A stretch of DNA of 64,000 nucleotides from an uncultured Melioribacter sp. (GCA_964465685.1 CAYXKK010000004.1:24697-88696); one strand, 5' to 3'; numbered from the stretch's first letter, positions 49,449 to 54,594 are shown. Translations and numbers: made by a program. The notes: a model not told the origin generated them from the sequence alone.

Positions 49449-50420
49449 ATGACTGATACAGCACGTGTCGAAGATCTCTCCAACCGGATCGGTACGGCAA
49501 CCGCCGAGATCGCAAAGGTTATCGTTGGACAGACGGATGTTGTCGAGCAACTCCTGATTGCACTCTTCGCCCGCGGACACTGTCTGCTGGTAGGCGTGCC
49601 GGGTCTTGCCAAGACATTGCTCATTCGCACGGTCGCCGACTCCATGGACCTGAGTTTCTCGCGCGTGCAGTTCACGCCCGACCTGATGCCGGGCGACATT
49701 ACCGGTACGGAAGTGATCGAAGAGAACAGAACCACCGGCCAAAAAGCATTCCGCTTTATCAAGGGGCCAATCTTTGCCAACATCGTGTTGGCCGACGAGA
49801 TCAACCGTACGCCACCCAAGACGCAAGCCGCTCTGCTCGAAGCCATGCAGGAGCACTCCGTAACGGCCTCCGGCACAACGTACCGTCTTGAAGAGCCGTT
49901 CTTCGTGCTCGCAACACAGAACCCGATCGAACAAGAGGGTACATATCCTCTTCCAGAAGCACAGCTCGACCGTTTCATGTTCAACTTACTTCTGGACTAT
50001 CCATCGCACGATGAAGAAGTAACCGTTGTGAAGACCACAACGTCGAGTGCTGCAGCATCGATATCGAAGGTGATGAACGCTGCCGACATCCTTAGCTTCC
50101 AAGAGCTTGTGCGTCGCATCCCGGTTGCCGACAACGTGATTGAGCATGCCGTATCGCTTGTGCGCTCTACACGCCCCGTGACAAGCACCGTGAAGGTTGT
50201 GAAGGACTTCGTTAGCTACGGTGCCGGACCTCGCGCATCGCAGTACTTGGTGCTCGGCGCCAAGAGCCGTGCCGCATTGCAGGGTCGCTTCACTCCAAGC
50301 ATCGACGACGTCAACGCTGTTGCGCTCAGCGTGCTTCGCCACCGCCTCGTCACGAACTTCAGTGCCGAAGCCGAAGGCGTGAGCGTCGATACGATTATCC
50401 GCGAGCTGTTGAAGAGCTGA
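49449..50420 (+). CDS. MoxR-family AAA+ ATPase
   Basis: Walker A GVPGLAKT, Walker B VLADEINR, and sensor regions typical of MoxR (AAA_3). Confidence 0.9.
   Translation: MTDTARVEDLSNRIGTATAEIAKVIVGQTDVVEQLLIALFARGHCLLVGVPGLAKTLLIRTVADSMDLSFSRVQFTPDLMPGDITGTEVIEENRTTGQKAFRFIKGPIFANIVLADEINRTPPKTQAALLEAMQEHSVTASGTTYRLEEPFFVLATQNPIEQEGTYPLPEAQLDRFMFNLLLDYPSHDEEVTVVKTTTSSAAASISKVMNAADILSFQELVRRIPVADNVIEHAVSLVRSTRPVTSTVKVVKDFVSYGAGPRASQYLVLGAKSRAALQGRFTPSIDDVNAVALSVLRHRLVTNFSAEAEGVSVDTIIRELLKS
50282..50407 (+). repeat. Left copy of a 126-bp direct repeat (the moxR 3-prime coding end)
   Basis: 125 of 126 nt identical to 54469..54594. Confidence 0.9.
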
Positions 50421-50424
50421 GAAG

Positions 50425-51810
50425 TTATCGCGCGACGAGAAAAACGGAGTTCGCCACCTGCGCATCTCCGGAACAGCGCGCGACGTAGGTGCCGGGCGGC
50501 AGCGAAGAAACATCGATAGGCACCGAATCCAGGGTTGTGCCTACCGTGATGACGGAGCGACCAAGAATATCTACGATCTCAATGGTCACCGCTATGGCAG
50601 AGAGTCCGTGGCGGATGGTCACGTTACTCGCAGCTGGCTGGGGATGGATTTCGAGATCGTGTGGTAGTTGGCAGTCTGCTACAGAAGTGATTGAGCACGG
50701 ATCGCTCATCCGTATCGGTGAGAGCACGGCATCGCGTTTGGAAATCCCAAGCATCAAATTGTCCAGATTTTGGCCCCACGTCCACCACTGCCCCGTAGAG
50801 TCGACGGCAAAACACGACATTCGTGAGGAGAAAATTTCACGTATCGGCGGCAGACTCGCTACTCGCTGCGGCGTGAACGATGCGAGGAACGATGGTAACC
50901 CAAGCTGACCATATGAGTTGCTGCCCCAGGTCCACACTGAACCATCGGCCCGCAGTGCAATGCTATGATACCTTCCGCCTTTGGCATCAACCACATCTGT
51001 AAGATCCAATCGATATGGTGTTGAACGGTTCGCTCGAGTTCCGTCACCGACCTGACCGCCTTCATTCGTTCCCCAGGTGTACAACGTCCCTGATGAATCG
51101 ATGGCGTAGCAGGGTCCAAGGTCGCCGTGTGATTCACTCGAACGCACCATGCGTATGCGCGATAATCCCTCGATTTGTCCGATTGGAACACGAAGCGAAT
51201 CAGGATTCCTCGCCGATGCACCACCACTGTTGTTACCCCATGACCAGACCGTCCCATCCACCAGCAGTGCGAGAGCACTGCCACCACTGCCGGAAATGGA
51301 GTGAACCTTCTTGGGGAGAAGTAGCTTCTTGGGACGGTACACTGGCGTCGTCTGGTCGCTGCCAAAGAGTATCGATAGGAAGGAAGAATTGTAACAGGTC
51401 GCATACACTTCACCGTCGTAGGTCAGATACATTGCAAACTGCGACGGCTCTCCAGCAACCATCTTCACCGGTTTATCGAAAGGTATCCGACGGAATACGA
51501 AACTGTTGCGACTTATATCTTCGAGTGTATCGCCGACGAGTCGCTCGGCAAGCGGTGAACCATAGACGGCGCCGCTTTGTGTCAGAGCGAAAATTGCACT
51601 ACTGAAGTACAGCGAAGTGATGCGCTCGTTAGACGGAACACTGTCGATGTTGAGATACGATGGACCCCATGGATGAATCTTCGTGCTGTCGCATGATACC
51701 CATCCCTCGAAGCGGCCAATCGCTGGTCTGATCTGTGAATGGGCTACCTGGCAGAGCATCAACATGGCCGCCACGAACAGGCCAAACGAGTAGGTCGGGT
51801 TCGTTCTCAT
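50425..51810 (-). CDS. Secreted RCC1-repeat beta-propeller protein with a T9SS C-terminal sorting domain
   Basis: Signal peptide. RCC1 signatures (WGSNSYGQLG, WGTNEGGQVGDG, WSWGNNSGG). C-terminal ...LPPGTYVARCSGDAQVANSVFLVAR Por-tail. Confidence 0.75.
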   Translation of the reverse strand: MRTNPTYSFGLFVAAMLMLCQVAHSQIRPAIGRFEGWVSCDSTKIHPWGPSYLNIDSVPSNERITSLYFSSAIFALTQSGAVYGSPLAERLVGDTLEDISRNSFVFRRIPFDKPVKMVAGEPSQFAMYLTYDGEVYATCYNSSFLSILFGSDQTTPVYRPKKLLLPKKVHSISGSGGSALALLVDGTVWSWGNNSGGASARNPDSLRVPIGQIEGLSRIRMVRSSESHGDLGPCYAIDSSGTLYTWGTNEGGQVGDGTRANRSTPYRLDLTDVVDAKGGRYHSIALRADGSVWTWGSNSYGQLGLPSFLASFTPQRVASLPPIREIFSSRMSCFAVDSTGQWWTWGQNLDNLMLGISKRDAVLSPIRMSDPCSITSVADCQLPHDLEIHPQPAASNVTIRHGLSAIAVTIEIVDILGRSVITVGTTLDSVPIDVSSLPPGTYVARCSGDAQVANSVFLVAR

Positions 51811-54283: not shown

Positions 54284-54295
54284 GGGGGGGGGGGG
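54284..54295. repeat. Homopolymeric G12 tract (C12 on the coding strand), 33 nt upstream of the start of the Cys-rich protein gene
   Basis: Read directly: tgc-gggggggggggg-catat. Confidence 0.95.
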
Positions 54296-54468
54296 CATAT
54301 ACGACTCCGGAATTCTATGAACTACTTTTACTACATCTTGTTCGTAGAACATACATCCACGCAATCAAAGCTGCAAGGACAATCTGCGGTATGACAGTAG
54401 TTGTCATACACGCGATTCGTGAAGTGTCTGTACTGTGTGATTATGCGATTACAGAAAATGATGCACAT

Positions 54469-54594
54469 GGGTCGCTTCACTCCAAGCATCGACGACGTCA
54501 ACGCTGTTGCGCTCAGCGTGCTTCGCCACCGCCTCGTCACGAACTTCAGTGCCGAAGCCGAAGGCGTGAGCGTCGATACAATTATCCGCGAGCT
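54469..54594 (+). pseudogene. Right copy of the 126-bp direct repeat: an orphan fragment duplicating the last ~42 codons of moxR
   Basis: Encodes GRFTPSIDDVNAVALSVLRHRLVTNFSAEAEGVSVDTIIREL with no upstream moxR body. One mismatch to the copy in the intact gene. Confidence 0.85.

Follow-up and report, generated by a model that had tools for sequence, protein, structure and literature searches.

The 3′ end of the gene moxR occurs twice in a 64,000-nt stretch of DNA from an uncultured Melioribacter sp. (GCA_964465685.1, CAYXKK010000004.1:24697-88696; this whole 64-kb stretch is called the window below), once within the intact gene and once as an orphan fragment just upstream of der. How did the DNA between the two copies come to lie in the end of a conserved gene, and what has become of it since? 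An earlier note on this DNA read the arrangement as the footprint of site-specific integration of a genomic islet, with duplication-mediated gene capture as the alternative. The islet is a real derived insertion. As to its origin, we consider it probable that one ancient, recombinase-independent insertion duplicated its target, and that the islet now persists as a presence/absence allele exchanged by homologous recombination, both through its flanks and internally, with its repeats being converted or decaying.

The duplication is a 126-nt direct repeat, located as the earlier note had placed it, with copy A at 50282-50407 inside moxR and copy B at 54469-54594 before der, both on the plus strand. 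The copies agree at 125 of 126 positions, and the single mismatch (G/A at 50394/54581) is synonymous (ACG/ACA). No other repeat of at least 100 nt is present in the window. The repeat boundaries were tested by comparing ungapped matches over 30-150 nt outside them with shuffle means, both in the window and in L005, a filled allele on the 107-kb contig CAYSMF010000007.1 of a metagenome-assembled genome (MAG) labelled ‘uncultured Melioribacter sp.’. The edges are sharp, as identity outside both ends is at or under the shuffle means. A duplication that was formerly longer and then decayed is ruled out, since no similarity is left past either boundary in the window or in L005.

The target gene, moxR (49449-50420, plus strand), encodes a 323-residue AAA+ ATPase that matches Pfam AAA_3 (1e-63) and AAA_lid_2, the latter up to residue 319. 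Copy A lies in frame within this functional gene and spans codons 278/279-320. It ends 13 nt before the moxR stop, and the last codons and stop (CTG/TTG AAG AGC TGA, the slash marking the repeat end) are not duplicated. Thus, the statement that the last ~42 codons are present twice holds for codons 278/279-320 but not for the final codons and the stop. These are supplied by the insert, whose first 13 nt form a new four-codon tail with its stop. The left junction (50408-50424, plus strand) comprises the first 17 nt of the insert, holds the new moxR codons (L)LKS and the stop, and ends at the stop codon of a convergent gene for an RCC1-type protein, the moxR stop and this gene being packed only 4 nt apart; the 3′ flank of the cassette reads ...GTTGAAGAGCTGA. 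Five codons (TGQK-stop) have been swapped for four unrelated ones (LKS-stop), so that moxR remains intact with an altered tail, ...IIRELLKS-stop, an open reading frame and a complete AAA_lid_2 domain. In its final codons, the end of moxR was replaced and not, as the earlier note had it, reconstituted.

Copy B is a relic, an orphan moxR fragment 57 nt upstream of the der ATG, in agreement with the earlier description. It is followed by the ancestral moxR tail and native spacer (54595-54651, plus strand), in which TGQK-stop extends to 54610 and the 41-nt moxR-der spacer follows. The right conserved flank is der (engA; 54652-55962, plus strand), with Pfam matches to two MMR_HSR1 domains and KH_dom-like. 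Between the repeat copies lies the unique insert (50408-54468), which measures 4,061 nt, or 4,187 nt as a unit with one repeat copy. At 51.9% G+C it is the lowest segment of its size in the window, which averages 55.4% (s.d. 1.0% among same-size windows). The insert is therefore lower in G+C as reported, but the RCC1 gene, at 54.5%, does not have the ~50% ascribed to both cargo genes.

If the islet is an insertion, the empty site should be moxR followed directly by der, and this predicted arrangement was found in three contigs of related populations that lack the insert. Two of them, L001 (Logan) and L002 (ENA), come from other samples and encode a der protein 100% identical to that of the window; in both, moxR ends ...IIRELTGQK-stop and is followed by a 41-nt spacer and der, the segment after the repeat being near-identical to that of the window (one spacer substitution). 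The third, L085, was the one contig retrieved when metagenomes were scanned with a conserved 45-mer from the repeat, and here der follows a moxR tail of ...ELTAQK-stop. Because the orphan in the window holds the TGQK-stop tail and the native spacer of the empty sites, it is the displaced original end of moxR. Empty L085 and filled L005 are 98% identical in der and moxR, therefore the site is polymorphic within a species-level group. L085 is not a deletion derivative of an L005-like allele, because it still has 21 nt of native spacer that are missing from L005. The adjacency of moxR and der is itself confined to this small clade, as der is not downstream of moxR at any of 79 more distant loci (L006-L084, at most 71% amino-acid identity), and these loci therefore offer no outgroup for polarity.

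At least four data sets yielded the integrated form in independent assemblies, namely the window, L005, L091 (an independent ENA assembly that is 99.9% identical to L005 across 10.5 kb) and L094 (a third islet allele, 7.7 kb). A fourth, more distant islet lineage is represented by L093, whose contig stops short of the orphan. Runs with the islet are SRR14454018, SRR14454014, SRR27012977, SRR12487002 and ERR14146745, besides the data set of the window itself. The cargo is also borne by the Logan unitigs L003, L004, L087 and L095. Those of L003, L004 and L087 stop in the repeats, 31 nt past the last copy-specific variant, which fits a true two-copy repeat because k = 31. In L094, the orphan has lost 28 nt internally and 39 nt at the left junction and has ~10% substitutions; it is so shortened and diverged that a repeat-induced mis-join is impossible there. 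Mis-assembly, which the earlier note had asked to be excluded, was thus not borne out by the independent assemblies or the junction unitigs.

The insert carries two genes on the minus strand whose open reading frames (ORFs) overlap by 4 nt, and their products are the two secreted proteins described before. Cargo gene 2 (50425-51810) encodes a 461-residue RCC1-type β-propeller with matches to Pfam RCC1, WD40_RLD and Por_Secre_tail; exact copies of the gene occur in L003 and L004. The protein has a signal peptide and a type A C-terminal sorting domain of the type IX secretion system (T9SS), the combination that defines a T9SS cargo. The sorting tail scores 34.4 bits with TIGR04183 (cut-off 23 bits) and 31.5 bits with Por_Secre_tail, PF18962 (cut-off 27 bits). 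Cargo gene 1 (51807-54251) encodes 814 residues including 37 cysteines and four CCF.V-type motifs. This protein matched no Pfam or NCBIfam family, nor was a T9SS C-terminal sorting domain detected in it with either collection. The true start of the gene probably lies upstream, across a poly-C tract described below. An AlphaFold (AF2) model (pLDDT 71.6) is all-β, a string of Ig/FN3-like sandwiches, and Foldseek comparison with the PDB returned only generic Ig/FN3/MG-type domain strings. Because these matches are generic and the model is of moderate quality, no function is assigned to the 814-residue protein.

The family of the 814-residue protein is rare, with 13 strong homologues among 5.8 billion (5.8e9) proteins, and exact-sequence look-ups of the window moxR, the window 814-residue protein and the cluster member P0028 returned no record. 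The nearest homologue beyond the clade, at 57% identity, is found in a Kapabacteria MAG. For distant members too (46% identity), the next gene is of the RCC1/T9SS type, although the loci are unrelated (L088, L089), and the distant cassette copies L086 and L088 are not beside moxR. The recurrence of the pair at unrelated loci indicates that it is a functional module older than the insertion.

The right end of the insert is the upstream (promoter) region of the cargo operon (54252-54468, minus strand, 217 nt), whose outer end reads ...GATGCACAT. It contains a perfect palindrome, GTATGACA-N5-TGTCATAC, at 54389-54409, ~100 nt upstream of the operon. The palindrome is kept in L005 amid a region of 79% identity and has one mismatch in L094; it is possibly an operator site.

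Comparison of the filled alleles indicates how the islet has behaved since its insertion. The left junction, GAGCT/G.TGAAGAGCTGA, is the same or almost the same in the window, L005, L094 and L093 when aligned with the empty L001 and L085, and the right junction, ...CACAT/GG, is common to the window, L005 and L094. The shared junctions and sharp edges point to a single origin of the insertion. The flanks are considerably diverged, with DNA identities of 80-88% between the window and L005, 92% between the window and L001, and ~79% between the window and L093. Synonymous divergence (dS) between the window and L005 is 0.05-0.06 in the cargo versus 0.55 in amt, 0.57 in der and 0.84 in tauE; relative to L094 it is 0.08 in the cargo versus 0.47 in der, and relative to L093 it is 0.27-0.36 in the cargo versus 0.83 in moxR and 1.2 in amt. 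The cargo dS of 0.05-0.08 is thus 3-10 times below that of the flanking genes (0.47-0.84). Stronger constraint does not account for this, because the ratio of nonsynonymous to synonymous divergence (dN/dS) of the cargo, 0.24-0.30, indicates relaxed rather than tightened selection. Judged from these divergences, the cargo is far younger than the genomes that carry the islet. The earlier note had held that an identical arrangement with backbone composition across distant relatives would speak against an inserted islet. The same junction does recur at ~79% backbone identity, but the composition and divergence of the cargo are unlike those of the backbone.

The alleles are also mosaic. The cargo coding sequences are 96.7-97.6% identical in all pairs of the window, L005 and L094, whereas the 217-nt upstream region is 79% identical between the window and L005 and 96.5% between the window and L094. 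L094, in turn, shares with L005 a second insertion next to the islet. Therefore, at least some exchanges broke inside the islet, that is, by homologous recombination between alleles that were already filled. Several features of a variable locus exchanged through its flanks were found here: the same site and junctions in the carriers, intact empty alleles, discordance between cargo and flanks, and mosaicism.

The repeats bear the variants of the genome in which they reside. In the three genomes tabulated, both copies have the lineage-specific bases at positions 13 and 67, and private variants are likewise present in both copies (C37/C43 in L005 and A121 in L094). This pattern is consistent with gene conversion between the copies, a process that has evidently ceased in L094, where the orphan is decaying. 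The orphan is thus a relic with no function of its own. Two possible functions of the orphan were considered. Retention as a carrier of the der promoter is ruled out, because the orphan is 2-3 kb from der in L005 and L094 and a conserved TAccTTTG motif directly precedes the der ATG in all alleles. A role as a gene for a 47-residue peptide, with an ATG made by the junction in the window and L005, is unsupported, the L094 orphan having deletions and stop-altering decay.

The second insertion spans 3,072 nt (L005 15163-18234; also in L091 and partly in L094) between the orphan stop and der. It encodes a 755-residue protein with a Por_Secre_tail (T9SS) domain and a 231-residue protein without a family. 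It replaces 21 nt of native spacer and sits 3-5 nt after the orphan stop codon; in L005 it has no third repeat copy, no flanking direct repeat of at least 25 nt and no recombinase. With a second gene for a T9SS-tailed protein inserted here, the moxR-der gap is a hotspot for secreted-protein genes.

Evidence for a mobile element was sought in several ways. As the earlier note observed for the window, the islet encodes no integrase: no recombinase was found in any of the four islet lineages (window, L005, L094 and L093), which contain cargo genes only, these statements covering the one contig seen per carrier genome. Searches of viral contigs, phages and plasmids returned no element with the repeat or cargo, and 80 genome loci, one metagenome match and the viral, phage and plasmid collections yielded neither an autonomous cognate element nor an integrase for the same att site. 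Hybrid attP/attB repeat copies were not seen either, both copies being of host type at positions 13 and 67 with private variants. Neither tRNA nor tmRNA genes nor any Rfam family were found in the window, therefore the site is not an RNA-gene attachment site. A transposon or insertion sequence is rejected, as there is no transposase, there are no terminal inverted repeats (only weak internal pairs) and the duplication measures 126 nt rather than 2-15 bp.

How, then, do the possible origins compare? Site-specific integration would make the islet a relic of the kind known as cis-mobilizable elements (CIMEs), which are decayed integrative islands at gene 3′ ends (PMC5704250). A circle bearing a moxR 3′ end as attP would have been integrated by a tyrosine recombinase, and the integrase later lost with attL and attR kept, perhaps leaving the islet to be mobilised in trans. 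The likeness is real: here too, a small strain-variable island without integration genes has lower-GC foreign DNA bracketed by direct repeats, one of them over the 3′ end of a conserved gene that stays open, much as integrative elements have att identity segments that extend over the 3′ end of their target gene and leave it functional (PMC2440964). Moreover, empty and filled sites occur in two lineages, the cargo, invariably at the same site, has diverged far less than the backbone, the adjacent second insertion in L005 and L094 resembles tandem accretion, and the LLKS tail looks like a genuine MoxR C terminus. Still, flanking repeats overlapping the 3′ end of the target (copy A in moxR) were the one feature clearly found of the six tested for integrative elements. 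The integrase is absent from all four islet lineages and from the neighbouring insertion, no cognate integrase element was found, and the metagenome scan gave an empty site only. The repeat is host sequence in each genome, positions 13 and 67 being of host type in both copies of both genomes, whereas a recent attP would, wherever a single crossover fell, leave donor bases in one copy. The last codons of moxR were replaced. The second insertion ignored the repeat and added no copy. Finally, the promoter end differs between the window and L005 as much as the backbone does, so the recent cargo exchange moved the inner islet only and not a whole attL-attR unit. Integration by a site-specific recombinase, the favoured proposal of the earlier note, therefore does not stand as the preferred account, and we regard it as rather unlikely. 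A reading that dispenses with the recombinase, in which the 126-nt repeats, made by an odd duplicating insertion and kept identical by gene conversion, are the working parts of a mobile unit that RecA excises precisely as a circle and re-inserts at the empty moxR of relatives, appears doubtful.

Three further accounts start from different premises. In homology-facilitated illegitimate recombination (HFIR), an established route for foreign DNA that uses one homologous anchor (PMC3240628), a linear donor with a moxR natively ending in LLKS-stop and convergent to the cassette would have recombined homologously in moxR and illegitimately at recipient codon 279, leaving the right junction as the sole true breakpoint. 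As in HFIR products, foreign DNA was here joined at an arbitrary gene position without a recombinase, one side possibly through moxR homology; LLKS fits the C-terminal pattern of the family, and moxR and the RCC1 gene lie 4 nt apart like native neighbours. Against this, identity drops from 99% to random right after the repeat, within what should be homologous gene tails, no genome was found with the cassette beside moxR and without the orphan, the distant cassette copies (L086, L088) are located elsewhere, and no donor is known from which the event could be reconstructed. We judge such an origin distinctly unlikely. Reversed polarity, with the filled form ancestral for the clade and every empty site a deletion between the repeats, is very unlikely, even though recombination between copies A and B gives the exact empty-site sequence and L093, the most divergent lineage seen, carries the islet. 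An earlier duplicating insertion would still be required, L085 keeps the native spacer lost in its filled conspecific, the low cargo dS makes the cargo younger than the lineages, and the repeats of the empty alleles are not recombinants of known copies. An assembly artefact is hardly credible. The assembler would have had to thread in, through the shared 126 nt, a cargo that exists as a separate 4.19-kb circle bearing a single repeat copy or that is located somewhere else. An ‘empty chromosome plus circle’ de Bruijn graph does have the same k-mers as the integrated form and the Logan unitigs break within the repeat, but integration recurs in the independent data sets, the L094 cargo still lies between moxR and der though its orphan has diverged, and the cargo has no replication gene.

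The reading we prefer, an ancient recombinase-independent insertion followed by allelic exchange, would run as follows. A cargo-only islet, consisting of two closely packed genes for secreted or surface proteins together with their own upstream region, would have entered the 3′ end of moxR once, in the ancestor of a small Ignavibacteriota/Kapabacteria-like clade. This event would have copied 126 nt of the target to both sides of the insert. Such a duplication points to an illegitimate or replication-template-switch insertion, or to fill-in of a long staggered break, rather than to a recombinase acting on an att site. The insert did give moxR its new tail, and the displaced end survives as the orphan before der. 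Filled and empty forms coexist among close relatives as a presence/absence allele, and the cargo appears to have moved between lineages after their divergence by homologous recombination anchored in moxR, der and the islet interior. Gene conversion would keep the repeat copies alike in some genomes, with the orphan decaying in others. Recombination between the repeats by RecA would remove the islet exactly and return moxR to its ancestral state, and such excision is plausible. Duplication-mediated gene capture, the alternative in the earlier note, comes closer to what the data allow than site-specific integration does.

Several points weigh against this reading. A long direct repeat over the 3′ end of a conserved gene is a classic mark of tyrosine integrases, and an integrase acting in trans could reside elsewhere in the carriers, which were seen as contigs only. 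The event that duplicated 126 nt has to be inferred, and no donor sequence is known with which the junctions could be compared for microhomology. Neither an excised circle nor a same-strain empty site was seen, and a recent pop-out is not demonstrated, since 3-7 positions separate the empty alleles from either repeat copy. The dS of moxR is below that of its neighbours in every comparison, including filled versus empty alleles, and therefore has no value as evidence of co-transfer; its intermediate level was dropped as such a sign, being equally low against the empty-site L085. In addition, LLKS is closer than TGQK to the usual MoxR C terminus (L-[LVI]-x-x), and the tail could hint at a donor-derived moxR end.

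The behaviour of the locus has a known counterpart. The pneumococcal capsule locus, which lies between dexB and aliA, is variable and is exchanged through its flanking genes by homologous recombination. The islet resembles loci of this type in its single site, its empty and filled alleles, the decoupling of cargo from flanks, mosaics with internal breakpoints and the absence of mobility genes. It differs in being much smaller, with two genes only, in lying inside a coding sequence and in having a 126-nt target duplication that would allow precise RecA-dependent excision. Insertions can also be removed or gained by transformation through flanking homology (PMC4795794). The locus adds another member to a known class, that of small non-autonomous islets at sites accessible to recombination. 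It provides a clean and well-sampled case of a small accessory block that persists and spreads without a mobility gene of its own, and it cautions that a gene-end duplicate next to foreign DNA is not always integrase-mediated.

A second layer of variation may act on the 814-residue protein. On the coding strand, a poly-C tract of 12 nt (54284-54295, minus strand) directly follows an ATG at about 54296-54298, and it is the only G/C homopolymer of at least 8 nt in the window. A tract of 13, 10 or 7 nt would give a frame into the 814-residue ORF (MPPPPRNFPQLRSLSVVLLILG...). Elsewhere the tract measures 7, 8 or 9 nt (L005-type), 7 nt (L094-type) or 9+AGA+9 (L093). Lengths of 9 nt in the L005 type (MPPPSNLPWLK...) and 7 nt in the L094 type are in frame, whereas 12 and 8 nt are out of frame. 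Homopolymeric tracts drive phase variation in simple sequence contingency loci of the type described by Moxon, and to our knowledge no such locus has been described for this phylum. The case here is alike in that the tract is at the 5′ end of a gene whose product is secreted or surface-located, varies in length among samples and toggles the frame from the upstream ATG. It is different in that the lengths are read from short-read assemblies, in which homopolymers are error-prone, and that in L005 translation could start at a TTG downstream of the tract. The variable length suggests a candidate for slipped-strand phase variation, by which expression of the 814-residue protein would be switched through slippage at the 5′ end of its gene, although the differences, coming from assemblies, may be homopolymer errors.

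A rare conserved gene pair, for a multi-β-sandwich protein with conserved cysteines and a T9SS-sorted RCC1 propeller, seems to be under strain-level, possibly phase-variable, control in an uncultured Ignavibacteriota/Kapabacteria-like group. Were the doubtful recombinase-free mobile unit correct, excising repeats and poly-C slippage would together form a two-level on/off switch, one of gene presence and one of reading frame, for a T9SS surface-protein pair, and reversible excision driven by the repeats would be a simple model of recombinase-free mobility.

Some observations elsewhere in the window are of separate interest. The Melioribacter label of L005, the closest MAG, is doubtful given that the window has 55% G+C and that the nearest outside homologue of the cargo is in a Kapabacteria MAG. 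Another strain-variable insertion involves an ORF at 46415-47938 (minus strand) for a 507-residue protein without a family. The region 46451-48236 is absent in L093, where DcuC is followed directly by the aminotransferase gene, and no flanking repeats were found. The 507-residue gene is fast-evolving (dN 0.13 versus L005), and ~50 nt of its ORF are shared with the convergent DcuC ORF. Two adjacent minus-strand ORFs of 235 and 237 residues, which are probably tandem paralogues, contain a 95-nt direct repeat (28393-28487 and 29137-29231, 74% identity). Lastly, an element of ~90 nt with a terminator-like hairpin (AAAAAGCCCCCTACC...GGTAGAGGGCTT) occurs at 21059-21148 and 22142-22232; the two copies are 88-91% identical and 1,083 nt apart, with a short stretch holding small minus-strand ORFs between them.

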